Counted from the stretch's first letter, positions 1 to 33,170 are shown. The stretch: 34,406 bases of DNA from Candidatus Shapirobacteria bacterium (GCA_027021145.1 JALUUX010000073.1:1-34406); one strand, 5' to 3'. Made by a program: numbers and translations. The notes: generated by a model from the letters alone, not told the origin.

Positions 1-1482
1 AAAACGGGTAGAGATGAGTGGGGAGCGAAGCTCCCTTTAATTTTCCGGGCCTATGGTGATTTCAAACTACCTTTATACATTTATCTAACTGCTGTTTCGG
101 TTAGGCTTTTCGGCCTTAACCCACTAGCGGTTCGGTTGATTTCAATTCTTTCCGGCATTGGCATCACCATCATTGCTTATCTTTTAGGAAAAAGGTTGAC
201 TAAAAACGAGGCAGTTGGTTTAGTGGCCGCTCTTTTAACTGCTGTTTCCCCTTGGAGTCTATTTGTTTCCCGAATTGCTGTCGAAGCCAATTTAGCCGCT
301 TTTCTCTTTGCTCTTGGCTTTTGGTTCCTTTTGACGGATAGACTCTTTTTTTCTCTAGTTTTTTGGGGCTTAAGTCTTCATAGTTATAACTCGGCTAGGG
401 TGTTGGTACCAATAATGATCTTAATTATTCTTGGGCGATTGATTAAATCGAGACAATTTGGTCGGTTAGCAATGACACTGGTGATTTTTTCAATTTTTGT
501 CCTGCCAATAGCGAAACAAGTTCTTGACCGCTCTGGGGGAGCAAGGTTTTTTTGGGTTACTCCTCTTGATCAGGGAGCAATTAATCGGATTATTGAGAAA
601 AGACTTTCTTCTTCCTTGCCGCCGCTCCTGACTCGTCTGATTTATAATCGACCACTCTATTTCGTTGGCTATTCTCTTAAAAATTATCTGGCCCACTTTT
701 CTCCCAGTTTTCTTTTCTTTAAAGGAGGGAGTCATTATCAGTTTTCTTTCCCAGAGCACGGAATTTTATATTTGATCACTGCCCCATTCTTAATTATTGG
801 CCTGTTTCGGCTGGTCAAACAAAGAAATTGGTTGCCTCTAATTTGGTTTTTTGCCGCCTTTATTCCTTCGGCCATTACCCGTGATTCTCCTCATGTTTTG
901 CGCAGTCTTTTGGTGTTGCCATTACCAATGGTATTTACTTCTCTTGGTCTTTGGTGGGCCCAAAGTTGGCTCAAAGAGAAATCTTGGTTCGGAGGAAATC
1001 TGCTTTTGGCCACTTTTGTTATTGGCGTTTTGATTCATTTTAGCCTTTGGTGGCGGGACTATTGGCGCATTTATCGTCCGGCCTATTCTTGGGCCTGGCA
1101 GTATGGTTACAGAGAGGCGGTTGATTATGTTAGAGAGCACTATAGCCAGTATGACAAGATCGTTTTCACTAAAAAATATGGTGAGCCCCATGAATTTATT
1201 CTTTTTTACTGGCCCTGGGAACCAAGTTATTATCAGCAAGATCCCAAGAAAATTTGGGACTATCATGCTCATTGGTATTGGGTTGATGCTTTTGATAAAT
1301 TTGAGTTTTGGAATGATTGGGAAGTAAAATCCAAAATTCAAAATGCAAAAACCAAAATGACAGATCAAAATGCAAAAATTTTGTTAATTACTTCGCCGGG
1401 GAATTGGGTAAAAGGGGGAAAGTTGTTAGAAACGATAAACTTTTTGGACGGGACGCCGGCGTTTGAGATAATAGAATACTGA
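1..1482 (+). CDS. GT-C fold membrane glycosyltransferase, PMT/ArnT-like (GT39/GT83 type), paralog A; the 5' end lies upstream of the window
   Basis: Frame 1 is open from nt 1 (KTGRDEWGAKLPLIFRAYGDFKLPLYIYL...), so the TTG at 136 in the ORF track is not the true start. This stretch aligns with KTGRDEYGQLLPFIFKSFGDYKPGLYVYL (1612..3381) and QTGKDEHGNSWPLHFKSFGDYKPGGYFYL (3405..5060). The N-half is multi-pass hydrophobic and the C-half is aromatic-rich and soluble (FTKKYGEPHEFILFYW). Confidence 0.8.
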   Translation, partial: KTGRDEWGAKLPLIFRAYGDFKLPLYIYLTAVSVRLFGLNPLAVRLISILSGIGITIIAYLLGKRLTKNEAVGLVAALLTAVSPWSLFVSRIAVEANLAAFLFALGFWFLLTDRLFFSLVFWGLSLHSYNSARVLVPIMILIILGRLIKSRQFGRLAMTLVIFSIFVLPIAKQVLDRSGGARFFWVTPLDQGAINRIIEKRLSSSLPPLLTRLIYNRPLYFVGYSLKNYLAHFSPSFLFFKGGSHYQFSFPEHGILYLITAPFLIIGLFRLVKQRNWLPLIWFFAAFIPSAITRDSPHVLRSLLVLPLPMVFTSLGLWWAQSWLKEKSWFGGNLLLATFVIGVLIHFSLWWRDYWRIYRPAYSWAWQYGYREAVDYVREHYSQYDKIVFTKKYGEPHEFILFYWPWEPSYYQQDPKKIWDYHAHWYWVDAFDKFEFWNDWEVKSKIQNAKTKMTDQNAKILLITSPGNWVKGGKLLETINFLDGTPAFEIIEY

Positions 1483-1611: not shown

Positions 1612-3381
1612 ATGAGAAAAGAAAGAATTATTTTGATAACTATTTTCCTCTTTGGTTTTCTAGTGAGAATTTGGCTGGTAGGAAGATATCCGCCCTTGCT
1701 TTGGGATGAGGCGGCTTTGGGTTATAATGCTTACTCGATTCTAAAGACCGGGCGGGATGAATATGGTCAGCTACTTCCCTTTATTTTTAAATCATTTGGT
1801 GATTATAAGCCTGGTCTTTATGTTTACTTAACCCTACCTTTTGTGGTCCTTTTGGGTCTTAATGAGCTGGCAATTCGTTTGCCATCAGTAATTCTTGGTT
1901 CTCTGACATCCGTTTTTCTCTATCTGTTGGTCAAAGAGATTTTTGAAGATACAAAAATTGCTTTTTGGTCAGCCTTAACTTTAACTTTTTTGCCCTGGTC
2001 GATCCATTTTTCTCGCGGCGCTTGGGAAGCAAATGTAATGACGGCCCTTTTAACTTTAGGAAGTTATTTGCTGGTTAGAAGTAGAAAGTTAAAGTTTAAG
2101 TTAGAGGAAGTTAAAGTAAAAAATTTGAGTAATAAGTTTTTGTTTTTAAGTCTTGGTTGTTTTTTCTTGGCATTATTAACCTACCAAGGGGCAAAGATGC
2201 TGGTGCCGTTGATCTTGATCGGGCTTTTCCTCTTTTTTAAACAATTTAATTTCCAATTTCTAATTTCAGCGAGCGCTAGCGAGCGAATTTCTATTATTTT
2301 GCTTGGAATTTTGATTGTTGCTTGGTATCTTTTTTCTTTTTCTGGTCCGGCAAAGAATCGGCTCAAAGTTATGAGCTTGCTTTCTTATCGTCGACCAGAG
2401 TCCGAAATAAAAACAATTCTTGATGAAGACAGATTGTCAGAGAAGAATTGGCATTTTTATCTGTTTCACCACGAGGGGCTTTATTTTCTCCGCGGTTTTT
2501 TAACTCGCTATTTTAACCATCTCTCTCCTCGATTTCTAGCTTTTGATGGCGATTGGAACAATCCTCGTCATAGTGCGCCATATTTTGGCATGGTTGGTCA
2601 CGTTAATCTTATTTTGTTGTTAATCGGACTAGCCCGTTTTCTTTCTCAAAGGCACAAATTTTCAGAATATTTTTTCCTCTATTGGTTAGTCATTGCTCCA
2701 TTACCAGCAGCGCTTTCCCGAGACATTGTTTCTGGAGTAAGAAGCTTGCCCATGGTAATTCCCTTAAGCTTTTTTATTGGTTATGGAATAGAGAGAATTT
2801 TGAAGTTAAAGTTAGAGTTTAAGTTTAAAGAAGTAAGAAGTAAAAAGTTTAAATTAAGATTATTGATATTAAAGTATGCCCAATTCATTGTTCGCTATTC
2901 AAAATACACAATACTAATATTCTTGATTCTCGATTTCATTTATTGGGCTGACCTTTATTTTGTTCATATGGTTAAACGAAAACCAAAAGATTGGCTTTAT
3001 GGATACAAAGATGCCATAAAATTTGTTCAAGAATACAAAAGTAGAACAGATAAAGTTGTTTTCACTGATTTTTACGGCCAACCCTATATCTATTATCTTT
3101 TTTACTCCCAATATTCGCCTCAAGAATATCAAAGGCAGGCAAGATTAATCGAGAATCAATTTGGTGATGTTGGTCGGGTAGAGAAGATCAATAATATTTT
3201 CTTTGGACCGGTGGACCGAGCTAAAGCCGAAAGTTGCCGCCACTGTTTAGTGATTTTTTCTCAAGACGAAATTTTACGTTCTGGGATCGACAAAGATCCA
3301 CAATTCTTTGCTCAATTAAAGCCGTTAGGAGAGATTAATAATAATCAAGTGATGTTTTATGGATTAAAGATTTTAGATTAG
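1612..3381 (+). CDS. GT-C fold membrane glycosyltransferase, PMT/ArnT-like, paralog B
   Basis: 589-aa ORF with many hydrophobic helices. The first-loop acidic motif PPLLWDEAALGYNAYS and the FKSFGDYKPGLYVY and HFSRGAWEAN motifs are shared with the neighbouring paralogs. The C-terminal domain is soluble (VVFTDFYGQPYIYYLFY). GATAAT at 1597..1602 lies 9 nt before the ATG. Confidence 0.85.
   Translation: MRKERIILITIFLFGFLVRIWLVGRYPPLLWDEAALGYNAYSILKTGRDEYGQLLPFIFKSFGDYKPGLYVYLTLPFVVLLGLNELAIRLPSVILGSLTSVFLYLLVKEIFEDTKIAFWSALTLTFLPWSIHFSRGAWEANVMTALLTLGSYLLVRSRKLKFKLEEVKVKNLSNKFLFLSLGCFFLALLTYQGAKMLVPLILIGLFLFFKQFNFQFLISASASERISIILLGILIVAWYLFSFSGPAKNRLKVMSLLSYRRPESEIKTILDEDRLSEKNWHFYLFHHEGLYFLRGFLTRYFNHLSPRFLAFDGDWNNPRHSAPYFGMVGHVNLILLLIGLARFLSQRHKFSEYFFLYWLVIAPLPAALSRDIVSGVRSLPMVIPLSFFIGYGIERILKLKLEFKFKEVRSKKFKLRLLILKYAQFIVRYSKYTILIFLILDFIYWADLYFVHMVKRKPKDWLYGYKDAIKFVQEYKSRTDKVVFTDFYGQPYIYYLFYSQYSPQEYQRQARLIENQFGDVGRVEKINNIFFGPVDRAKAESCRHCLVIFSQDEILRSGIDKDPQFFAQLKPLGEINNNQVMFYGLKILD
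2077..2136 (+). repeat. in-frame AAGTT(A/T)AAG-type low-complexity segment inside paralog B (encodes RSRKLKFKLEEVKVKNLSNK)
   Basis: The DNA reads agaagtagaaagttaaagtttaagttagaggaagttaaagtaaaaaat... Paralog A has only TDRL at this loop. The 12-mer gaagtagaaagt recurs at 4638..4649. Confidence 0.8.
2800..2916 (+). repeat. in-frame 117-nt K/L/F-rich repeat element inside paralog B (LKLKLEFKFKEVRSKKFKLRLLILKYAQFIVRYSKYTIL)
   Basis: It is absent from the equivalent position of paralog A. It is about 80% identical at nucleotide level to 4602..4724 (94 of 117 aligned nt by hand count), which is higher than the flanking conserved coding sequence. Confidence 0.85.
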
Positions 3382-3404
3382 ATAAGAATAGATAGGAAAT
3401 AGAT

Positions 3405-5060
3405 ATGCGCTCACTTCGTTCGCTGATAAGAGTTGTTGACCACGATACTTATCAATCCCTATCAACTCCTATCGTGCGGAGCACACTTATCTTTATTCTA
3501 CTTTTGGCCGCTTTTCTCCGTCTTTATCGGCTAGGTGGTTATCCGCCGCTGAATGTTGATGAGGCGGCTATTGGTTATAATGCCTGGTCGTTGATCCAGA
3601 CCGGTAAAGATGAACACGGCAATTCTTGGCCTCTTCATTTTAAATCTTTCGGAGACTATAAGCCAGGTGGCTATTTTTATCTTGTTCTGCCCTTAGTTAA
3701 ATTCTTGGATCTCAATGAGTGGGCAATTAGATTGCCATCGGCTTTAATGGGAGTGGCGACAGTTTATTTAGTCTATCTTTTAGCCAAAATGCTTTGGCAA
3801 GATGAGGTTCTCGGTCTGATTTGGGCTTTTATTTTGTCGGTCTCTCCCTGGCATATTCATTTTTCCCGAGGAGGATGGGAAAGCAATGCCGCTTTGTTTT
3901 TTACGCTTTTGGCAACTTACCACTTTTTTAGAGCAGAAAAAGAAGAGACTAGGGCGATCACTATTCACTATTCACTATTCACTATTCACTCTCTTTTGGC
4001 GATGTATACTTATCACAGTGCTCGATTAGTGGTTCCTGCCTTGGTATTAGGATTAGCAGCTTTTAACCGAAATTTTCTTTGGAAGAGAAGAAAAGAGTTA
4101 GTTGCTCCCGTCTTCATCAGCTTCTTGCTAGTAATTCCTTTAGCAATTTCGTTTTTGAAAGGTGGTGCCTCAGCCAGATTTTCTGGGGTCGGTCTTTTGG
4201 CTGATCCTGGACCGCTTTGGCGAGTAAACGAGTTAATTGGTCAGCACCAAAAACCAGCCTTAGCCCGATTAATTCATAATAAACCAATCATTTATAGTAT
4301 TGCCTTCTTTCAAAAATACCTTTCCCATTTTAACGGCCGGTTTTTGTTTGTTGATGGTGATGAAGTCCCTCGAAGCAAAGTCCCAGAAATGGGAACAATG
4401 TATCTTTTTGAATTTTGGTTTCTGGCTTTAGGTTTCTGGTTTTGGTTGAAGAAGAAAATAGATCATAAATATTTGCCCATCCTATGGTTGTTGGTAGCAC
4501 CGTTGGCTTCGGCAATGACTTTTCAGGCGCCCAGCGCCTTAAGAGCCCTGCCAATGGTTATTCCTCTGACTTTTTTTGTTGCTCAGGGAATTAAACAAAT
4601 CTTGAAGTTTAAGTTTAAGTTAAAGTTAAAATTTAAAGAAGTAGAAAGTGAAAAGTTGAAGTTAAAATTATTGGCATTGAAATATACTCAATTCATTATT
4701 CAGTATTCAAAATACGGCATACTAGCTCTCTACCTATGGGGAATTGCCTACTGGTGGAACCAGTACTTTGTTCATTATTTGAAACGCTATCCTTCGGCTT
4801 GGCCTGATTTTAGACCAGTAGCCCAGTGGCTTAAAACAAATGGGGATCAATATCAAAAGATATGTATTCAGGGAAAATATGATCAACCCTATATTTTGAC
4901 CCTTTTTTATTTAAGATATCCACCAGAAAAAATTCAAAGAGAGATCAAATTAACCTCGCCGGATAAATTCGGTTTTTCAACCGTAAAGCATTTTGGCAAG
5001 TATTGGTTTAGCGACTGCGAGCAAGATATGTTTGTATTGGGTATTGAGAATGATGAATGA
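3405..5060 (+). CDS. GT-C fold membrane glycosyltransferase, PMT/ArnT-like, paralog C
   Basis: 551-aa ORF carrying PPLNVDEAAIGYNAWS, FKSFGDYKPGGYFY and HFSRGGWESN motifs. It is a multi-pass membrane protein with a soluble C-terminal domain (GKYDQPYILTLFYLRY). Confidence 0.85.
   Translation: MRSLRSLIRVVDHDTYQSLSTPIVRSTLIFILLLAAFLRLYRLGGYPPLNVDEAAIGYNAWSLIQTGKDEHGNSWPLHFKSFGDYKPGGYFYLVLPLVKFLDLNEWAIRLPSALMGVATVYLVYLLAKMLWQDEVLGLIWAFILSVSPWHIHFSRGGWESNAALFFTLLATYHFFRAEKEETRAITIHYSLFTIHSLLAMYTYHSARLVVPALVLGLAAFNRNFLWKRRKELVAPVFISFLLVIPLAISFLKGGASARFSGVGLLADPGPLWRVNELIGQHQKPALARLIHNKPIIYSIAFFQKYLSHFNGRFLFVDGDEVPRSKVPEMGTMYLFEFWFLALGFWFWLKKKIDHKYLPILWLLVAPLASAMTFQAPSALRALPMVIPLTFFVAQGIKQILKFKFKLKLKFKEVESEKLKLKLLALKYTQFIIQYSKYGILALYLWGIAYWWNQYFVHYLKRYPSAWPDFRPVAQWLKTNGDQYQKICIQGKYDQPYILTLFYLRYPPEKIQREIKLTSPDKFGFSTVKHFGKYWFSDCEQDMFVLGIENDE
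3958..3990 (+). repeat. heptanucleotide tandem repeat (CTATTCA) x4 plus partial units, inside the coding sequence of paralog C
   Basis: Four perfect units span 3961..3988, flanked by partial units tca and ct. The tract encodes ITIHYSLFTIHS. Confidence 0.95.
4602..4724 (+). repeat. in-frame 123-nt K/L/F-rich repeat element inside paralog C (LKFKFKLKLKFKEVESEKLKLKLLALKYTQFIIQYSKYGIL)
   Basis: This is the homologous copy of 2800..2916, with one 6-nt indel. Confidence 0.85.
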
Positions 5061-5112
5061 ACAAAATAGCTTATCGGATTATCGGGGTATCGGGGAAAGG
5101 GTGTCAGAGATA

Positions 5113-5544
5113 AGATTATCAGTTAATTTATTTCTTTAATGCAATCGGTACTTAGGCCTGGTTTTGAGAAACTGAGAATTTGGCAAAAAGCTTATGATTT
5201 GATGTTAAAAGTTCATAAACTTTGTAAGTCTTTGCCGCGGGAGGAAAAATTTAGAATAAGAGATCAGGTCGAACGGTCCTCGGCGGCAGTGGTAGACAAC
5301 ATCGCCGAGGGATATGGGGCTTTCTATTTTAAAAACAAAATTAAGTGTTTTTATACTTCAAGGAGGGAGGCGGTTGAAACCCAGAATCATTTGCGAAAAA
5401 TGAATGGTAAGGGATATATTTCGAGATCTGTGGCAGACAGTTTGATTTTAGATTACGAAGGATTGATTAGGGGTATTAACGGAATGATTAATTATATTAA
5501 GGAAAAATCGAGCAGAAGGGGAAAGGGTTAAATTCTGATAATCT
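5113..5544 (+). mobile_element. inverted-repeat-bounded four-helix-bundle gene cassette (candidate selfish or IVS-like module)
   Basis: A perfect 10-bp inverted repeat, AGATTATCAG (5113..5122) and CTGATAATCT (5535..5544), brackets the 5139..5531 ORF. It sits 16 nt before the ATG and 3 nt after the stop. Upstream there are three TATCGG units (5072..5094). Downstream TCTGATAA occurs twice. Confidence 0.45.
5139..5531 (+). CDS. four-helix-bundle protein (TIGR02436 / PF05635, 23S rRNA intervening-sequence protein family; same fold family as DGR Avd)
   Basis: 130 aa with the family signature IRDQVERSSAAVVDNIAEGYGAFY...SRREAVETQNHL. Size and helical pattern are typical of the family. Confidence 0.85.
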   Translation: MQSVLRPGFEKLRIWQKAYDLMLKVHKLCKSLPREEKFRIRDQVERSSAAVVDNIAEGYGAFYFKNKIKCFYTSRREAVETQNHLRKMNGKGYISRSVADSLILDYEGLIRGINGMINYIKEKSSRRGKG

Positions 5545-7480: not shown

Positions 7481-8568
7481 AAAAGATTTTAGTGGGCTTT
7501 GATGTTTCGCCGCTTTATTCTGGTCATAAGGTGAGGGGAATTGGGTTTTATACTGAGCGATTGCTAGAGGGATTAAAGGGGTTTAGAGATCTGGAGATAA
7601 GAGAGTTGAGGAGTAAAAAGGAGGTCGATGAGGCCAATTATGATTTACTTCATATTCCTTATTTTCACCCCTATTTTTTTACTTTGCCTTTTAGAAAAAA
7701 GGGGCCATTGGTTGTTACCATTCATGATTTAATCCCGGTCAAATATCCAGAACATTATCCTCCGGGAATAAAGGGGCGCTTACGCTGGGAGATTCAAAGG
7801 GGACTACTTCAAAGAGTAGATCTTGTTATTACCGACTCTTTTGCCTCAAAATCTGACATTGCTCGGTTAACTGGTTACCCTAAAGAGAGAATTCATGTTG
7901 TCTATTTGGCCGCTGATGATGTTTTTAGAGTAATTAAGAGTAAAAGAATATTGAGGGAAATAAAAGAGAAATATCGTCTGCCAGAAAAATTTGTCCTTTA
8001 TGTTGGTGATGTTAATTGGAATAAGAACGTTCCGGGATTGGTGCGCGCCTGTCGAGCAATCGGAGCTCCGCTAGTGATCGTCGGTAAACAAGCAGTTAGG
8101 GACGATTTTGACCCCACGCATCCGGAAAATAAAGATTTAGCTTGGTTGAAGAAAATGAAAGAGAGGCACACTCCCTATATTCTAAATTCTAAATTCTATA
8201 TTCTAACCTTGGGCTTTATTCCCACCGAGGATTTGGTCGCCATTTACAACCTGGCCACAGTTTATTGTCAACCGTCATTTGATGAAGGTTTTGGTTTGCC
8301 AGTAATTGAGGCAATGGCCTGTGGTTGTCCGGTAGTAGCTTCTAATCGGGGCAGCTTACCTGAAGTAGTTGGTAAAGCAGCCATTTTGACAAAGCCAGAA
8401 GTCAAGGACTTGGCTGAAGCGGTCAAATCACTTCTTCAGGACGAAAAAAAGAGGAGAGGGCTTGCTTCTCTAGGACTGAAAAAAGCTAACGAGTTTTCCT
8501 GGCAAAAAGCCGCTCAAGACACTTACTTTCTTTATAAATCGCTAATTGCTGGCCGACTGCGACACTAA
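7477..8568 (+). CDS. GT4-family (GT-B fold, Glycos_transf_1) glycosyltransferase
   Basis: PSFDEGFGLPVIEAMACGCPVVASNRGSLPEVVG is an E-x7-E motif region. The N-terminal VGFDVSPL...GIGFYT is typical of GT4. The last five codons and the stop lie inside the 49-nt repeat. Confidence 0.85.
   Translation: MKKILVGFDVSPLYSGHKVRGIGFYTERLLEGLKGFRDLEIRELRSKKEVDEANYDLLHIPYFHPYFFTLPFRKKGPLVVTIHDLIPVKYPEHYPPGIKGRLRWEIQRGLLQRVDLVITDSFASKSDIARLTGYPKERIHVVYLAADDVFRVIKSKRILREIKEKYRLPEKFVLYVGDVNWNKNVPGLVRACRAIGAPLVIVGKQAVRDDFDPTHPENKDLAWLKKMKERHTPYILNSKFYILTLGFIPTEDLVAIYNLATVYCQPSFDEGFGLPVIEAMACGCPVVASNRGSLPEVVGKAAILTKPEVKDLAEAVKSLLQDEKKRRGLASLGLKKANEFSWQKAAQDTYFLYKSLIAGRLRH
8179..8206 (+). repeat. heptanucleotide tandem repeat (ATTCTAA) x4, with the third unit ATTCTAT, inside the GT4 coding sequence
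   Basis: The DNA reads attctaa attctaa attctat attctaa and encodes ILNSKFYILT, located between the two Rossmann halves. Confidence 0.95.
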
Positions 8569-8599
8569 ATTTGGATACAAAAATGATGTCGCTGTCGGA
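8551..8599 (+). repeat. 49-nt direct repeat, copy 1 (imperfect hairpin containing a stop codon)
   Basis: GGCCGACTGCGACACTAAATTTGGATACAAAAATGATGTCGCTGTCGGA is identical to 9268..9316. The arms CCGACtGCGAC and GTCGCtGTCGG pair with one T:T mismatch around an AT-rich loop. Confidence 0.95.
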
Positions 8600-8604
8600 C
8601 GAGA

Positions 8605-9285
8605 ATGAATAAGGTTAGTCAATTACTAGTCCGTCTATATTGGCTTGAAGAGCTCGAAGTCAAGGCTGAACTGACCAATAAGTTGGTGTTGGGTAAAAAT
8701 CGGAAATCGAGTAGGTTGCTCTTAGAGAATCTTATTAACAATAATTTAATCAATTGTCGCAGAAATAAACTTTTTCTTTCGCCATTAGGAAGAAAATTAG
8801 TCGAAAAATCATTTCCCTTGTGGGCTAAAAGGGATGAGAAATGGTCTGGTTTTTGGTGGGCATTTGTTTTTGATCTTTCGGCGAAAGAAAGAAGTCTCCA
8901 TCGTTCATTATTGAGATTCCTTAGAAGGCTGGGCTTTGGATTGCTTCAGCAGAGCACTTTTATTTCTCCTTATGATTGGAGTAAAGAGTTAAGATTGTGG
9001 TTTAGAATGAGGAATTTAGATCTGACAGGGGATTGGGGAGAAAAAATACTTTTAGTAAAAATGATAGATTTTGATTGTCCGGCAGCTAGTTGTTGGCCTC
9101 TTGACCTAACGAAATCAGCGTATTTAGAAGTCGAGAGAATTAAAAATATCCATGATCAGTTTAAAAAGTTAATTGAGGCAATGAGTATTGATCCTTGGTT
9201 GCCTGATAAGGTCAAAGTTTCAAGTGAGATCAATAAATTAAGAGAAGGGGTAATCTCTACTTTTCTTGGCCGACTGCGACACTAA
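8605..9285 (+). CDS. PaaX-like transcriptional regulator (winged-helix N-terminus plus PaaX-type middle domain)
   Basis: WSGFWWAFVFDLSAKERSLHRSLLRFLRRLGFGLLQQSTFISPYDW resembles the PaaX core (W-x-G-x-W..F..p...R..lr..L...GFG.l....wisP). The N-terminal LINNNLINCRRNKLFLSPLGRKL looks like a wHTH. The protein ends in GRLRH, encoded by repeat copy 2. Confidence 0.55.
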   Translation: MNKVSQLLVRLYWLEELEVKAELTNKLVLGKNRKSSRLLLENLINNNLINCRRNKLFLSPLGRKLVEKSFPLWAKRDEKWSGFWWAFVFDLSAKERSLHRSLLRFLRRLGFGLLQQSTFISPYDWSKELRLWFRMRNLDLTGDWGEKILLVKMIDFDCPAASCWPLDLTKSAYLEVERIKNIHDQFKKLIEAMSIDPWLPDKVKVSSEINKLREGVISTFLGRLRH

Positions 9286-9316
9286 ATTTGGATACAAAAA
9301 TGATGTCGCTGTCGGA
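9268..9316 (+). repeat. 49-nt direct repeat, copy 2
   Basis: Identical to 8551..8599 and again in-frame with the 3' end of the preceding CDS. Confidence 0.95.
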
Positions 9317-9364: not shown

Positions 9365-12300
9365 ATGAAAGGGAGAAGAATTTTTCTTTTGGCATCAATT
9401 TTTAGCTCTCTAGGGTTAGCTTTCTTTGTTTTTAGAACTAGACTTCTGATTAGAGCAGCCAATTATGAGGCAACCATTACTTCGTTCACTGTAGATAGTT
9501 CCAGTCTTGGGGCTACAGGAGTAACCTACACTCTTGAGTTCAAGTTTTCTCAAGATTTTGTTGGGGGGACAGGTAGTTCAGCTAATTTGATTTTGAAGCG
9601 AATTGTGACCCAACAAGGAGCTGATGTCACCTCCAATATGGCCTCAGCCACTGGTTCGATTTCTAGTTTTCAATATCAGGATAGCAATGGCGCCTGGCAA
9701 ACTATCAGCTATGACAATAATAGTTTTTCGGCCCAAATATCTGACTCATTTTTGGTTTATCATTTTAGCGATATTACTACCAATATTCCCGCTAATCGTC
9801 CCATTCGATTAGTTATTGGAGGAGTCACCAATCCTTCGAAGGCGGGAAGTTATGCCTTCGATCTTAGTTTTGCTGATGCTAATGGAAATAATTTTTCGGT
9901 TGAACCCTACAATAATCCCGAGCGAACGGTTCGGGTTGATATTGGGGATTATTGTTTCAAAGTAAAAATTACTGCTCCTGATGGAACAACCGCGATGCCA
10001 GGTCTAGATGTTTTTGTTGATTCGGCTGATCACTCTTTTAACACTTTTCTTAAGACCGACTATTTAGGCTTTGTCTCTTTTTATAGTGACGGCTTTACTG
10101 GTCTGACTAACTGTCCTTCGGGGAGTAATCAAAAAGTTTATCTATTTATTAATATTGGTCCTGATAGTTCTAATCCCAATCACTACTTCCCGCCCGAACC
10201 CACAGTACTTACTTTACCCACTAATCAGGATACTTATGTTAGCAATCCGATTAAGCTAGTCCAAGCTAGTAAGACTATTTCGGGGACGATAACCTATTCT
10301 GATGGTAGTGGTGGAGTTAGTGGGGCGCGGATTAATGCTTTTCAGCCGGACACGGGTCAGTTTACCCAAACCACTAGTGGGAGTGATGGCAGTTTTACCC
10401 TTTATGTTGGTGGTGGTACTTGGGAAGTAATGCCTGAGGCGCAGTCAGACTCTAATTGGGCTTACGGGGCTCCGCCGGAGCGAGTTAGTTTTCAAGAAAA
10501 TACCGAATCGGAATCAGCTACAGTCAATTTTAGTGTTGATAAGGCAACGGCTAGCGTTACTGGCCGACTTTTAAAGCCTGATGGCACGCCTGTTTCGCCT
10601 AGTGAGGGCTATGGAGTAGGGGTTTTTAGTATGGAAGGTAAGGGAGGTGGCGGGCCGGTGGGCAATAATGGCGTCTTTCAGATTAATGTGCCAGCGGGAA
10701 GATATCAGTTTGAAGTCTGGACTCCGCCCGATAGCACTTACGGTTCGCCTGGAGGGAGAACAGTCGAGGTGAAAGAGGGTGAAACCGTCGATTTGGGTGA
10801 TATTACGCTAGTAACTAAGGATGCCACCATTCAGGGAACAGTAAAAGTAGCAGGCACTAATACGGGTGTGGCTAATGTAACGATCAATGCTTTTGTGCGT
10901 GATGGTGGGGGATTCGCGATGACTACTACCGATGCTGATGGTAATTTTAGTCTTTCGGTTACCTCAGGTACTTGGATGGTGATGCCGATGTTTGATCCTA
11001 GTGCCAACTATGCCCTGACTGATCCACCTCAAGAAGTTCGGGTTGCTTCGGGAGAAACGGCTACGGTAACAATTAGTGTTGAGTCAGCTACGGCCACCAT
11101 CCGAGGCAGCTTGGTTGACAGTAATGGCAACTTGGTTTCGGTCTATGGTTATGCTTTTGCGGAAACGCCAGGAGGGGAAATGTTTGGTCCGGGGGGAATG
11201 GGAGGGCCAATTGAGCGCGGCACTTTTTCCTTTAAGGTTCCGGCAGGAAGTTATAATATTAGCGCTGTTTTGGCACCTGGATCAAACTATACTGTCGGCC
11301 AGTCTCAGTCAGTAACCGTAGCCGACGGCCAAACTGGAGCGGTAACGATCAGCTTGGTTCAGAATAACGCCACCATTACTGGCTCAATTTTAGACCAGGA
11401 TGGTAATGCTGTTTCTCCTTCTGACTTTTTTGTTTTTGCCGTCTCAGAAACGGGTGGCCATAAAACTTTTCAAGAGGGGACAGTGAATGGCAGTTCTTAT
11501 ACTATTCAGGTAGCGGCTGGAGAGTGGAGTCTGGGTTATTTCGTTGATCCAAGTACGGGTTATATGTCGGCTCCTCCTGATCCATCGTTACGGTTTACTG
11601 TCAATTCAGGAGAAACAGTGGTTAGAAATATTACTCTTCATGCCGCCAATAGCACGATTACCGGTCGAGTGACGAAGCCTGATGGCTCAGCGGCCGTGGG
11701 GGTTTTTGTCTCCGCCGATAATCGAGAAACTGAGGGAGGGGAGTTTATGAATGGGGCGCCGACTAATAACGACGGTTATTATACTATTCGAATTGCCGCT
11801 GGCAGTTATAAACTGCGAGCTAATGTTGCCCCAGGATCAGGCTACCTTTCGCCGGCCGAGCAGACGGTAACCGTAGCTGATGGAGAAAGTAAAACAGTCA
11901 ATTTTACTTTGCGAGAATCAAATGCTACGATCACGGGTCAAGTAACTTTGAGTGGCGCAGGCAAGCCCGCCTTTGTTTACGCCTGGTCCGAAGATGGTGG
12001 TTTTACCCAGACTCAAGCTAATGCCAGCGGTAATTATAGCCTCTCGGCCTCAACTGGCACTATCTGGCATGTAGGAGCGCGCTATGAATCGGGTACCAGT
12101 GCTTATGAAGCTAGTGAAACAAGGGTGGATTTGACTAGTGCCAATTCTGGTACTGCCAATTTGGCCCTCGCCAGTCTAGATTATAATTTGCCTGAACCCT
12201 ATAGCGTCACTTTTGACGCTACCAAGCCCAAGATTATTACTCTTTCTGATGGCACAGAGATTAATATTCCAGCCAATGCTCTGGCCACCTCAGGTAATGT

Positions 12301-13354
12301 TACTTTGAGCATTGAACCAAAGGTTTCCCTGCCTGCTAAGAAGGGCGATCGGCCAGTTTGGTATGGCTATGAGTTTACCGCTATTAATAGCAGCGGTCAG
12401 ACTATTACCCAATTCAATAGCAATATTACTATTACTTTTCCTTACACTGATGCTCAATTGAACAAGCTGGGAATTACTGCTGACGATCTGATTCCTTCTT
12501 ATTGGGATGATACTTCGGGGACCTGGAAGAAGGTCGATAATGTTACCGTTGATACCACGGCGAAAACGGTAACGATTACCATTAACCACTTTACCAATTT
12601 TGCCCTGACAGCTAATTACACCAGGGGAACCACTAGTTCTACTAGTAGTGGAGCTACTTCGGGAACTAATGCTTCAGGTGGGGTTTCTAAGCCGATGGCA
12701 CCCAAAGAAACTGGCTCCATTGTCGAAGGAGCAACTAATAAAGTGGTTTGGATGATTCCAGCGGGAGCCTTAGAATGGGATGCCGATTTTGAAATGACTC
12801 AATTAAGGGAGGGATTTGAGAAGCCTAAACCACCACTGTGGATTGCCTCGGGTCCTTATCAAGTGACGATGAAGGCTTGGTGGAATGGGGCGAAATTTAG
12901 CCATTTTCGGAAGCCGGTAACTTTAATTATCCGTTATGATCCGACTGCTCTGGGTAATATTCCGGAAGAATCACTGCGACTGAATTATTATGATCCAGCT
13001 AAAAAGCGTTGGCGCCCGCTTAATTCTTTGCTGATTACTGATCGCCACGAGGTAGCGGCGGTAGTGAGTCAAGTTCATGGCCTTTATGCCTTGATTGGTG
13101 GTTTTGGCTATCAGGGAGCGCCGCAATACTTAGAGGAAACGGTTACTGCCACCGCTCGATCAGAAGAAATTGGCTTGAAAGAAGATCTTTTGCCCAAGAG
13201 AGAGGTGAGAGAAGAATTATCCAAAAGTAGTGAGGACCAACCAGTAATTCGCTCCAGTCCCTCGCCAGAACCAGAACCATCGGTTGCGGCAGTTAAACCC
13301 AAAGAGAGTTGGTTTAAGCGGCTTTTAAAGAAAATATTTCCTTTTCTTCGCTGA
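9365..13354 (+). CDS. giant N-terminally anchored cell-surface protein with 7-8 tandem carboxypeptidase-regulatory-like (CarboxypepD_reg/PEGA-like) beta-sandwich repeats
   Basis: MKGRRIFLLASIFSSLGLAFFVF is a signal or anchor helix. Repeat starts are TISGTITYSDGSGG, ASVTGRLLKPDGTP, ATIQGTVKVAGTN, ATIRGSLVDSNGN, ATITGSILDQDGN, STITGRVTKPDGS and ATITGQVTLSGAG, each about 85-95 aa. Two further related C-terminal domains (..YWDDTSGTWKKVDNVTVD.. and ..YYDPAKKRWRPLNSLLI..) are separated by a Ser/Thr-rich linker. The tail is acidic then basic. Confidence 0.8.
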   Translation: MKGRRIFLLASIFSSLGLAFFVFRTRLLIRAANYEATITSFTVDSSSLGATGVTYTLEFKFSQDFVGGTGSSANLILKRIVTQQGADVTSNMASATGSISSFQYQDSNGAWQTISYDNNSFSAQISDSFLVYHFSDITTNIPANRPIRLVIGGVTNPSKAGSYAFDLSFADANGNNFSVEPYNNPERTVRVDIGDYCFKVKITAPDGTTAMPGLDVFVDSADHSFNTFLKTDYLGFVSFYSDGFTGLTNCPSGSNQKVYLFINIGPDSSNPNHYFPPEPTVLTLPTNQDTYVSNPIKLVQASKTISGTITYSDGSGGVSGARINAFQPDTGQFTQTTSGSDGSFTLYVGGGTWEVMPEAQSDSNWAYGAPPERVSFQENTESESATVNFSVDKATASVTGRLLKPDGTPVSPSEGYGVGVFSMEGKGGGGPVGNNGVFQINVPAGRYQFEVWTPPDSTYGSPGGRTVEVKEGETVDLGDITLVTKDATIQGTVKVAGTNTGVANVTINAFVRDGGGFAMTTTDADGNFSLSVTSGTWMVMPMFDPSANYALTDPPQEVRVASGETATVTISVESATATIRGSLVDSNGNLVSVYGYAFAETPGGEMFGPGGMGGPIERGTFSFKVPAGSYNISAVLAPGSNYTVGQSQSVTVADGQTGAVTISLVQNNATITGSILDQDGNAVSPSDFFVFAVSETGGHKTFQEGTVNGSSYTIQVAAGEWSLGYFVDPSTGYMSAPPDPSLRFTVNSGETVVRNITLHAANSTITGRVTKPDGSAAVGVFVSADNRETEGGEFMNGAPTNNDGYYTIRIAAGSYKLRANVAPGSGYLSPAEQTVTVADGESKTVNFTLRESNATITGQVTLSGAGKPAFVYAWSEDGGFTQTQANASGNYSLSASTGTIWHVGARYESGTSAYEASETRVDLTSANSGTANLALASLDYNLPEPYSVTFDATKPKIITLSDGTEINIPANALATSGNVTLSIEPKVSLPAKKGDRPVWYGYEFTAINSSGQTITQFNSNITITFPYTDAQLNKLGITADDLIPSYWDDTSGTWKKVDNVTVDTTAKTVTITINHFTNFALTANYTRGTTSSTSSGATSGTNASGGVSKPMAPKETGSIVEGATNKVVWMIPAGALEWDADFEMTQLREGFEKPKPPLWIASGPYQVTMKAWWNGAKFSHFRKPVTLIIRYDPTALGNIPEESLRLNYYDPAKKRWRPLNSLLITDRHEVAAVVSQVHGLYALIGGFGYQGAPQYLEETVTATARSEEIGLKEDLLPKREVREELSKSSEDQPVIRSSPSPEPEPSVAAVKPKESWFKRLLKKIFPFLR

Positions 13355-14596: not shown

Positions 14597-14674
14597 ACTG
14601 ATTTGACCATTTGATCATTTAGCATTTGCCATTTATCATTTTAGATAATCAATGTTAAATGTTTAAATGAATAA
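14597..14674. repeat. stutter-repeat spacer (CATTTnn units, then AAATGnn units, period 7-8 nt)
   Basis: The DNA reads gatttgac catttgat catttagc atttgcc atttatc attttag ... atgttaa atgttta aatgaat aaatgac. Confidence 0.8.
14640..14668 (+). promoter_or_regulatory. candidate promoter with an extended -10 that would give a leaderless or near-leaderless mRNA
   Basis: TGtTTAAAT (14660..14668) is the same 9-mer as 9343..9351. A weak -35, TTTAGA (14640..14645), sits 17 nt upstream. The ATG at 14675 is 6 nt after the -10 and there is no Shine-Dalgarno. Confidence 0.4.
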
Positions 14675-20396: not shown

Positions 20397-20409
20397 AGTT
20401 AGAAACTAA

Positions 20410-20428
20410 CCCCGACGATACGTCGGGG
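20410..20428. repeat. GC-rich hairpin H1 (CCCCGACG ata CGTCGGGG)
   Basis: 8-bp perfect stem with a 3-nt loop. Confidence 0.9.
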
Positions 20429-20444
20429 CGAAATTAGAAATTAG

Positions 20445-20462
20445 TTCCGACTTTTGTCGGAA
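20445..20462. repeat. hairpin H2 (TTCCGAC tttt GTCGGAA)
   Basis: 7-bp perfect stem with a 4-nt loop. Like H1, it is followed by CGAAATT. Confidence 0.9.
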
Positions 20463-20481
20463 CGAAATTTAGTTTTGGGTA

Positions 20482-20865
20482 ATGAACTACATCAAACTAG
20501 AAGACTTGGATGTTTACCGGTTATCTAGGGAAATCAGTGAAAAGGCTTGGAGTGTTTACAAGGATTTTGGTTGGCGGATAAAGAAAATAGTTGGCGATCA
20601 ATTTATTCGCTCGATTGATTCGATTGGTGCTAACATTGCTGAGGGATATGGACGATATCATTATTTAGATAAGATTAAGTTTTACTATAATGCTCGAGGA
20701 TCATTGTTAGAAGCAAAGCATTGGCTGGGACTGTTAGAGGAAAGGAAGTTGATAGAACCATCGGAAGCATCTTTTCTAAAAGAAGAACTGAGAAGTCTTG
20801 GCATAAAATTAAATAGATTTATTAATTCCACTTTTAAAGCTAAGAATGGCTCGGGGGTAAAATGA
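20482..20865 (+). CDS. four-helix-bundle protein (TIGR02436 / PF05635 family), second copy
   Basis: 127 aa with GDQFIRSIDSIGANIAEGYGRYHY...ARGSLLEAKHWL, the same NIAEGYG signature as 5139..5531. Confidence 0.85.
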   Translation: MNYIKLEDLDVYRLSREISEKAWSVYKDFGWRIKKIVGDQFIRSIDSIGANIAEGYGRYHYLDKIKFYYNARGSLLEAKHWLGLLEERKLIEPSEASFLKEELRSLGIKLNRFINSTFKAKNGSGVK

Positions 20866-20879
20866 AATTATTAATTTCA

Positions 20880-20897
20880 GCCCCGAAACGTCGGGGC
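20880..20897. repeat. GC-rich hairpin H3 (GCCCCGA aacg TCGGGGC)
   Basis: 7-bp stem with a 4-nt loop, 15 nt after the four-helix-bundle stop codon. Confidence 0.9.
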
Positions 20898-20936
20898 GAA
20901 TTTCTAATTTCGCGCCAGCTAATTTCTGGTTTTAAC

Positions 20937-21038: not shown

Positions 21039-21094
21039 AACTCGCCAACCCGTTAACTCGTTAACTCGTTAATAATCAATAAACCAATAAAATA
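21039..21094. repeat. octamer stutter repeat running into the wzt start codon
   Basis: The DNA reads aactcgcc aacccgtt aactcgtt aactcgtt aataatca ataaacca ataaaata ATG. Confidence 0.8.
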
Positions 21095-32940: not shown

Positions 32941-33170
32941 TTGTTAATTATTACTAATTATTACTTATGATGATTTTAACAATGAGAGAATTTTAACACA
33001 AGGTGGTGGTGTTTATTGAGTTATTAACTTATTAATTATTAACGGGTTGGGGAGTGGTATTGAAAAGTTAAAAGTTAAAAATTAGCTCGTTATGCTAGCG
33101 ATAAGAATAAAAAGAATAAAAAATGAGAAAGGATAGAAAAGAATAGAAACTGGAAACTGGAAATTGGGAG
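32941..33170. repeat. long spacer made of consecutive short tandem duplications (stutter repeats)
   Basis: Successive motifs are taattattac x2 (32945..32964), ttttaaca x2, ggt x3, ttatt-type units x4 (33013..33043), aaagtta x3 (33062..33084), gaataaaaa x2, (g)gaatagaaa x2 and ctggaaa x2. Confidence 0.85.

Follow-up and report, generated by a model that had tools for sequence, protein, structure and literature searches.

The subject of this analysis is a lysine-, leucine-, and phenylalanine-rich (K/L/F-rich) segment that lies in frame in two neighboring glycosyltransferase genes of a Candidatus Shapirobacteria bacterium. Both genes are found on a 34,406-bp stretch of DNA (GCA_027021145.1 JALUUX010000073.1:1-34406, referred to as the window), a complete metagenomic contig which has a G+C content of about 38% and whose gene content is that of an envelope-glycan cluster. 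Three tandem GT-C (PMT/PMT_2) glycosyltransferases, called paralogs A, B, and C, stand at its start, and the features central to the argument are the following:

1..1482, + strand: paralog A, a GT-C/PMT_2 glycosyltransferase (Pfam PMT_2 at 7.8e-08) whose 5' end lies off the contig
1612..3381, + strand: paralog B, a GT-C glycosyltransferase (Pfam PMT and PMT_2) and the proposed donor
3405..5060, + strand: paralog C, a GT-C glycosyltransferase (Pfam PMT and PMT_2) and the proposed recipient
2800..2916, + strand: B copy of the K/L/F-rich loop segment, 39 codons, matching 4608-4724 at 94/117 nucleotides
4602..4724, + strand: C copy of the segment, 41 codons, the putative converted patch, homologous to the B copy and without counterpart in C orthologues
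2747..2907 in B with 4549-4715 in C, + strand: maximal-scoring high-identity tract (score 22.0), an outer estimate of the conversion tract

Membership of the three proteins in the GT-C group (PMT_2/GT39-like, ArnT-like) is given by their Pfam matches together with the predicted fold and an acidic motif. The AlphaFold2 model of B, with a predicted local distance difference test score (pLDDT) of 92.3, is matched by Foldseek to STT3, ArnT (5EZM), PglB, and Pmt4 with a probability of 1.00, and at the level of the model the GT-C fold of B is thereby confirmed. The acidic residues D32 and E33 near the N-terminus are invariant in 90 homologues. Named homologues belong to Patescibacteria and Candidatus Shapirobacteria and share 45-49% identity.

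The segment shared by paralogs B and C

By direct count the two copies are identical at 94 of 117 nucleotides, with one 6-nt indel adjoining a shared TTGAAG, which agrees with the coordinates and counts given in an initial annotation of this DNA made from the sequence alone. A repeat search likewise pairs 2800-2916 with 4608-4724 at 80% (family D1). Upstream of the segment 37 of 57 nucleotides are identical, one more than the 36 first reported, and downstream the figure falls to 26 of 57, so that this flank is the more diverged of the two, as had been stated. Over the whole codon alignment of B and C, nucleotide identity is 0.51 and third-position identity 0.39, as against 0.78-0.83 and 0.70-0.75 inside the segment. 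The copies are in frame and agree at 25 of 39 residues, 22 of which are encoded by the same codon when 11.0 would be expected from the codon usage of the contig (P about 5e-6). Paralog A, as already noted in the initial annotation, is without the segment; the loop between its two anchor motifs is 58 residues long and contains no K/L/F tract.

The maximal-scoring B-C tract reaches 22-24, compared with a null of 6.9 +/- 1.5 and a null maximum of 15.5 in 5000 column permutations, while the second-best tract, on the DEAALGYNA motif, is not significant (P = 0.09). The upstream part of the best tract takes its identity from the conserved LPMVIPL helix and keeps C-type residues (T, VAQGIK), which puts the true 5' junction near 4590-4602. 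When the same test was applied to 22 paralog pairs from five genomes (the window and the loci L001, L005, L006, and L007), the B-C pair of the window was the sole outlier, at z = 11.2. The other 21 pairs gave z <= 6.6, with peaks on motifs of the N-terminal region (WDEAxxGYNAYSILKTGRDE, FKSFGDYKPG) or on other conserved stretches. Homogenization of the same B-C loop in other genomes was considered and rejected, as the best B-C tracts in L001, L005, L006, and L007 fall on the 30-57-nt FKSFGDYKPG motif. Among the controls, nucleotide identity between A and B of L001 (6355-8004 and 8001-9725) is raised over 132 nt (z = 6.6) that cover the conserved N-terminal motif WDE...GYNAYSILKTGRDE...FGDYK, a rise that could reflect either strong codon-level constraint or another conversion tract.

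Both copies are also present in L003, an independent ENA assembly of a near-identical strain that differs by 7 single-nucleotide polymorphisms (SNPs) in 11.3 kb, and this excludes an assembly artefact. One of these substitutions, 2850 T>G, falls in the B copy. Ongoing micro-conversion was looked for among the strain SNPs and rejected: of the three in B only 2850 T>G gives the base found in C, and those at 2001 and 2022 differ from it.

Proposed origin and transfer of the segment

The history of the segment can be read against L001, a syntenic array with one-to-one orthologues of A (L001:6355-8004, 67% amino acid identity), B (L001:8001-9725, 65% amino acid and 71% nucleotide identity), and C (L001:9832-11325, 68% and 71%), cross-paralog identities being 28-37%. 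This one-to-one orthology makes the duplication that produced A, B, and C older than the split of the two organisms. The C orthologue lacks the segment in a four-way alignment and has a native transmembrane helix, KLIVVLIILS, in its place. Nor does the segment occur in P0122-P0175, the 54 nearest homologues of C that were examined; they share 47-73% identity with C, include the L001 orthologue (P0124), and have anchor-to-anchor loops of 49-78 residues. Across homologues, the loop that separates the LPMVIPL helix from the DLYxxH motif is 46 to 79 residues long. The B orthologue holds the second half of the segment alone, VLKIPQFIIRYSKYIIL (QFIIRYSKY), at the same site as in B, where the second half occupies approximately 2857-2916. 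Over 97 nt spanning 2879-2975 it is 83.5% identical to B at the nucleotide level. The first half was found in no B orthologue retrieved. In a motif search of all 241 retrieved homologues, the first half was present only in B and C of this organism, and the second half only in B and C of the window, a strain variant (P0001), and the L001 B orthologue (P0002). The C copy thus aligns with B and with the B orthologue and has no counterpart in any C orthologue examined, a phylogenetic incongruence within the gene.

Nei-Gojobori estimates of synonymous (dS) and nonsynonymous (dN) divergence give the segment a dS of 0.30 and a dN of 0.21 between B and C, with a dN/dS of about 0.7. By comparison, dS is 1.45 between window B and L001 B and 1.75 between the two C genes, a ratio to the segment value that is rough because the segment has only some 21 synonymous sites, and it is about 3.0 over the rest of the B-C pair, in line with the saturated synonymous sites described earlier outside the segment. 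As 0.30 is so far below the two orthologue values, the C copy is much younger than the speciation, and as the B orthologue carries the second half at the same site, B is the lineage holding the ancestral part of the segment. The shared codons, the outlying z score, and the low dS uphold the original view that this is not ordinary paralog divergence. Comparative sequence evidence shows that C contains a young, bounded patch of B-like sequence that C orthologues lack, which also bears out the suggestion that DNA was converted between coding loops with the frame kept. The bounded high-identity tract, its dS below that of the orthologues, and the incongruence with C orthologues together point to ectopic gene conversion.

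Structure prediction had been proposed as a check on the loop position, and in the AlphaFold2 model the segment, residues 397-435 of B, lengthens the last transmembrane hairpin. It prolongs the penultimate transmembrane helix (H379-402), turns at a tip of low confidence (403-412, pLDDT about 62), and continues as a helix (413-428), after which comes the last transmembrane helix at 430-456. The C-terminal domain of GT-C enzymes lies outside the cytoplasm, from which it follows that the loop should be cytoplasmic, and its richness in lysine agrees with the positive-inside rule. In C, the copy occupies the place of two native elements of the L001 orthologue, namely the juxtamembrane stretch and the N-terminal half of its final transmembrane helix. 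The insertion most likely extends the terminal helical hairpin into the cytoplasm as a lysine-rich stretch, and any function of its own is putative.

The internal makeup of the segment suggests how it may have arisen. Tandem Repeats Finder resolves it into a mosaic of degenerate short tandem arrays, which include:

2803-2830, + strand: AAGTTA x4.5 array in the B copy
2828-2848, + strand: AAGAAGT x3 array in the B copy
4605-4636, + strand: AAGTTT x5.3 hexamer array in the C copy, one unit longer than in B
4691..4709, + strand: ATTCATT/ATTCAGT/ATTCA heptamer array (period 7, x2.7) in the second half of the C copy

The additional AAGTTT unit in C accounts, in the pairwise alignment, for the 6-nt indel between the copies. 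The stretch of B homologous to the 4691-4709 array is 2883-2901, and the B orthologue has the same NNNATTC periodicity. Short arrays are generally abundant on the contig (37, compared with 8.3 +/- 3.3 in dinucleotide shuffles, an excess of about 4-fold), the three GT-C genes account for 13 of the 37, and 8 non-overlapping period-7 arrays are present where shuffles yield 1.0. Across ten B and C genes of five genomes, arrays cover 29% of lineage-specific insertions and 6.6% of the remaining sequence, and different lineages carry different arrays at both variable loops. This content and enrichment support an origin by slippage in place, within a permissive loop. Coding microsatellites and slipped-strand low-complexity regions occur in bacterial proteins, and the segment resembles them in its arrays of 6-7-nt units, in copies that differ by a whole unit, in its length-variable loop, and in a composition that stems from codons rich in A+T (K, L, F, I, N). 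It differs in that its arrays are degenerate (66-92% matches) and show no length polymorphism between the two strains, a comparison that also gave no sign of switching like that of phase variation.

We therefore favor, with a probability of about 0.78, a history in which a loop insertion born by slippage was copied between tandem paralogs. A low-complexity insertion would first have built up in the B lineage, in the cytoplasmic loop between the last two transmembrane helices, from AAGTTW hexamers, AAGAAGT-type heptamers, and NNNATTC heptamers, all now degenerate, with only in-frame products surviving. Slipped-strand mispairing is a plausible and, in our estimation, fairly likely source of this insertion, and the juxtamembrane KFK motif native to the family may have seeded the arrays. 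About 120 nt of B (at most about 160 nt) would then have been copied non-reciprocally into the homologous site of C, 1.8 kb downstream, which the comparative evidence dates to after the split from the L001 lineage; we consider it likely that B was the donor. This would have displaced the native loop of C and part of its last transmembrane helix (the N-terminal half), for a gain of 27-29 residues. The transfer itself is inferred to be gene conversion or template switching between the tandem genes, by RecA-type ectopic conversion or during replication, and may have used the short conserved 'GI..IL-K-F' homology at its 5' edge. Since then, both copies have diverged under weak constraint (dN/dS about 0.7), including the whole-unit slippage indel of 6 nt.

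Several points count against this history. Over the 17 codons of the second half alone, window B is about as distant from window C (dS 0.56) as from its own orthologue (dS 0.65; about 11 synonymous sites), and the timing that these codons suggest on their own is weak. The B-to-C direction rests on a single B orthologue (L001/L002) with half of the segment. The one other strain, L003, shows no repeat-length polymorphism, its 7 substitutions coming without any indel and just one of them falling in the B copy. The flanks hold scant homology for classical recombination, particularly on the 3' side (26/57), while the 37/57 on the 5' side ends in the shared TTGAAG; this leaves the molecular route uncertain, with template switching on microhomology as the alternative. 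Within this organism, the search that yielded no further copy of the segment covered the 34.4-kb contig, and the two additional PMT_2 paralogs that L001 carries upstream of its A orthologue are candidates for another donor, which we discuss below.

The closest precedent that we know of is the partial gene conversion between the ancient bacterial paralogs encoding release factors RF1 and RF2 (Ishikawa et al. 2015, PMC4530459). There, too, a bounded region moved non-reciprocally between long-diverged paralogs, was detected by sliding-window analysis and incongruence with orthologues, and carried along a lineage-specific insertion, the '12 aa-motif' (PMC4530459). The present case differs in that the genes are tandem and 1.8 kb apart, that the patch is only about 120 nt, and that it is a low-complexity loop insertion adding 27-29 residues to the recipient, not a functional domain. 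Concerted evolution in tandem paralog clusters is similar in that adjacent paralogs swap sequence blocks; an example reportedly involves units that run across gene ends and intergenic DNA within one species (PMC2568036), unlike the single internal patch seen here.

Competing explanations

One alternative, which we regard as improbable, is that a mobile repeat inserted independently and in frame at the B and C loops, leaving a shorter relative at 2077-2136. Such a repeat would resemble the Rickettsia palindromic elements (RPEs) that the initial annotation invoked, or a miniature inverted-repeat transposable element (MITE). RPEs are palindromic and form multi-copy families, with 44 insertions in unrelated R. 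conorii genes (MITE review, PMC10969869). Like them, the segment is a short (about 120-150 bp) in-frame stretch within otherwise conserved genes, encodes a conserved peptide at a structurally permissive site, and is present in some orthologues and absent from others. The near-confinement of AAGTTW arrays to three loop sites of the contig would also fit a mobile repeat, as would a 13-mer, AGAAGTAGAAAGT, common to 2077-2089 and 4637-4649 in different reading frames. In addition, a stretch of 29-35 nt in the same loop of the L001 C orthologue has matches in two intergenic elements of the window, which indicates that spacer-type repeat DNA can end up in this loop.

The analogy with RPEs fails on structure and inheritance and finds no support in the copies seen. 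On the contig there are two copies only, at homologous sites of paralogs, and one of them is partly vertical, as the second half was inherited in B. RNA folds of both copies on both strands gave z-scores of +1.59, +0.08, +2.04, and +0.67, none better than shuffled sequence, and a search for inverted matches within the segment returned just trivial ones of 8-17 nt and no terminal inverted repeats. A hairpin or palindrome was rejected on these grounds, and no target-site duplication is visible in the alignment. Two insertions at exactly one codon of paralogs that are 38% identical would be far less parsimonious than a single transfer. The codon-aware alignment put forward earlier as a check yields a peak of local identity and a low dS within the segment.

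Searches for further copies point the same way, within their reach. The contig has no other copy above chance. A 26-nt degenerate core motif that fits all three K/L/F tracts had 0 matches in 185,579 species genomes, by an exact-pattern scan that misses copies of about 80% identity, and the same kind of scan of the species genomes with the second-half motif also gave 0. In 241 million Joint Genome Institute (JGI) metagenome records the core motif had one chance match (L004), in an unrelated gene and a different frame. A phmmer search with the 41-residue C peptide against 1.84 billion cluster representatives found 0 matches, a weak negative given a short low-complexity query without a positive control, and the cluster of the protein itself may be represented there by a protein lacking the segment. 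A two-peptide profile run against a 5.8-billion-protein index returned 18 candidates, none scoring; it missed the organism's own proteins, thus failing its positive control, and was disregarded.

The supposed relatives of the segment also have other explanations. The two tracts concerned are as follows:

2077..2136, + strand: 'third tract', an AAAGTT x6.5 array (Tandem Repeats Finder) in a K-rich loop that joins transmembrane helices of B on the predicted cytoplasmic side
33063-33084: period-7 array in a spacer, AAAAGTT x3.1

The pattern AAGTTWAAGTTW, which describes the AAGTTW hexamer array, has 18 matches where 2.9 are expected, 13 of them inside the three tracts, and to this extent the first of these is indeed related to the segment as the initial annotation proposed. 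The likeness is limited to the hexamer array and the 13-mer read in another frame, with a best local match of 18 nt at 94% (E 0.005-0.01). The tract, predicted to be a cytoplasmic loop (residues 165-170 and flanks), is absent from the L001 B orthologue. K-rich loops occur at the same position in the B orthologues P0004, P0014, and P0008 (L005, L006, L007); those of L005 and L006 begin RKL[KR][IF][QK], and that of L007 (P0008) begins RKSEIR and reads RKSEIRNPKFEI. Judged from these sequences, the third tract is an old, rapidly evolving loop of the same low-complexity class and neither a copy of the segment nor a fresh insertion. The spacer tract, first placed at 33062, is a heptamer array as described; it matches the segments over just 16 nt and without significance (E 0.19), making it an unrelated period-7 array, and it cannot code on that strand because TAA occurs in every frame. 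We read the B-C patch as the product of ordinary gene conversion and not as a mobile repeat element.

We give little chance to the possibility that an unseen third paralog, for example a PMT_2 gene upstream of A, supplied the patch to both B and C. The contig begins inside A, so that the upstream region is off the contig, and one of the two upstream PMT_2 genes of L001 (4731-6389) has a K-rich insertion, KIKNQISKVKMKSQNPKLKK, in the same loop. Against such a donor, the second half stands at the same site in the L001 B orthologue, and B therefore had it before the split; among the 241 homologues, moreover, either half is confined to B, C, and the strain variant, with the B orthologue added for the second half.

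It is very improbable that selection acts on the segment directly as DNA or RNA, whether for an internal promoter, an RNA structure, or a binding site shared by both genes. Third positions are conserved beyond what the amino acids need, which would suit this idea, yet neither strand forms a stable fold (z +0.1 to +2.0), no Rfam family matches, and promoter-like sites number 14 compared with 13.5 in shuffles. A dN/dS of about 0.7 and 23 nucleotide differences point to drift, not constraint, and orthologous operons of the same gene order do without the segment. A known RNA family and an internal promoter or terminator were accordingly set aside, the first for want of an Rfam match and the second at chance level.

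Scarcely credible, finally, is an ancient structural loop of the B/C ancestor, kept here and lost elsewhere, its nucleotide identity held by codon bias: codon choice for K, F, and Y is indeed biased (AAA 69%, TTT 78%, TAT 79%) and both clades have a juxtamembrane [IL]LKF.F-like motif of their own (e.g., P0014, P0126, P0138), but codon bias predicts 11 identical codons where 22 are seen, leucine codons are shared despite a same-codon probability of 0.19, the segment dS of 0.30 compares with about 3 elsewhere in the pair, and dozens of independent losses would be needed in C orthologues. The initial annotation had itself raised such a loop, present in orthologues with flank-like synonymous divergence; the orthologues are without the segment, and its dS is far below that of the flanks.

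Neighboring repeats and implications

After A, B, and C, the window encodes GT2 and GT4 enzymes, a large CarboxypepD_reg-type repeat protein (an assignment taken from the same gene in L003), ABC-2 transporter genes, sugar-nucleotide enzymes, and two 23S_rRNA_IVP genes. A-rich heptamer arrays (with units such as AAAATTC, AAATTCG, AAAATGC, AAAAGTT, and AAATTAG; 2-8 copies) are very frequent, many of them in coding loops of glycosyltransferases. Those found by Tandem Repeats Finder in the window lie at:

1326-1379, 2248-2267, 3958-3990, 8175-8206, 14601-14641, 20430-20444, 33063-33084, and 33146-33167

The program reports 11 period-7 rows in the window, two of them overlapping, and the four related loci L001, L005, L006, and L007 hold 5-11 heptamer arrays per 8-18 kb. 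In paralog C a perfect TCACTAT x4.7 array encodes ITIHYSLFTIHS. In a protein-level survey of 240 homologues, only a handful of heptamer-derived peptides (KIQNSKF, KFEIRNS, and similar) were found, which confines the phenomenon to closer relatives.

The loop of the L001 C orthologue, the same loop as the segment site here, contains AACTCGTTAACTCGTTAATAATTAATAAATTAATA at L001:10952-10986. It matches a window spacer at 21055-21083 (28/29, E 5e-7) and another, on the opposite strand, at 33044-33022 (22/23). The first element is upstream of an ABC-transporter ATPase gene (21095) and the second, at 33022-33044, upstream of a GHMP-kinase gene (32899, minus strand); both have a composite layout of (AACTCGTT)n followed by (AATAANN)n. 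Going by sequence, this match and the abundance of heptamers in loop insertions are the most unusual leads of the locus. It is conceivable, if on balance unlikely, that A-rich heptamer and hexamer arrays (AAAATTC, AAATTCG, AAAAGTT, AAGTTW) are a clade-wide short repeat DNA of spacers and envelope-glycosyltransferase cytoplasmic loops that might move between loci as well as arise in place. Three heptamers make 21 nt, so that the frame would be kept and all three reading frames of the unit translated. If this were true, the B-to-C patch and the match between the C-orthologue loop and the spacers would be two visible instances of repeat movement, and the outcome would be lineage-specific innovation of protein loops, RPE-like in result and not in structure.

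Other repeats mark the cluster. An exact 50-nt direct repeat (8550-8599 and 9267-9316), with an imperfect hairpin, brackets a 226-residue PaaX_M-like open reading frame (ORF; 8605-9285), and owing to this repeat both the GT4 gene and the ORF end in ...GRLRH. At the syntenic site of L001 the large repeat protein comes directly after the GT4 gene, with no such ORF between them, and the ORF looks like a recent cassette insertion or duplication. The B-C pair is flanked by inverted 72-nt spacer copies (1537-1608 and 5064-5135, 76% complementary) rich in CCCGATA and CCTGATA units, including TATCGGGG x3. The corresponding genes of L001 abut or overlap without spacers, and the 23S_rRNA_IVP gene found at 5139-5531 in the window is absent there. 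The second 23S_rRNA_IVP (four-helix-bundle) gene, at 20482-20865, lies between the ABC-2 permease and ATPase genes (region 20400-20920). Similar G+C-rich hairpins, CCCCGACGATACGTCGGGG and CCCCGAAACGTCGGGG, stand on either side of it, and repeats of the GAAATTAGAAATT type come after each hairpin. Four of the 7 SNPs that separate the window from L003 cluster in a stretch of 200 nt (10642-10838) inside the internally repetitive large surface-protein gene (9365-13354), near repeat families D5 and D12, and could stem from exchange between internal repeats.

For the family, the segment shows that the last cytoplasmic loop of these GT-C enzymes can expand freely, which is useful in construct design and in the reading of alignments. 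It also serves as a warning that such patches can look like mobile in-frame elements or conserved motifs when a single genome is scanned. For the organism, an uncultured bacterium with a reduced genome, it is a clean and datable case of short ectopic transfer between tandem paralogs, and suggests that homologous exchange and slippage still shape its envelope-glycosylation genes.

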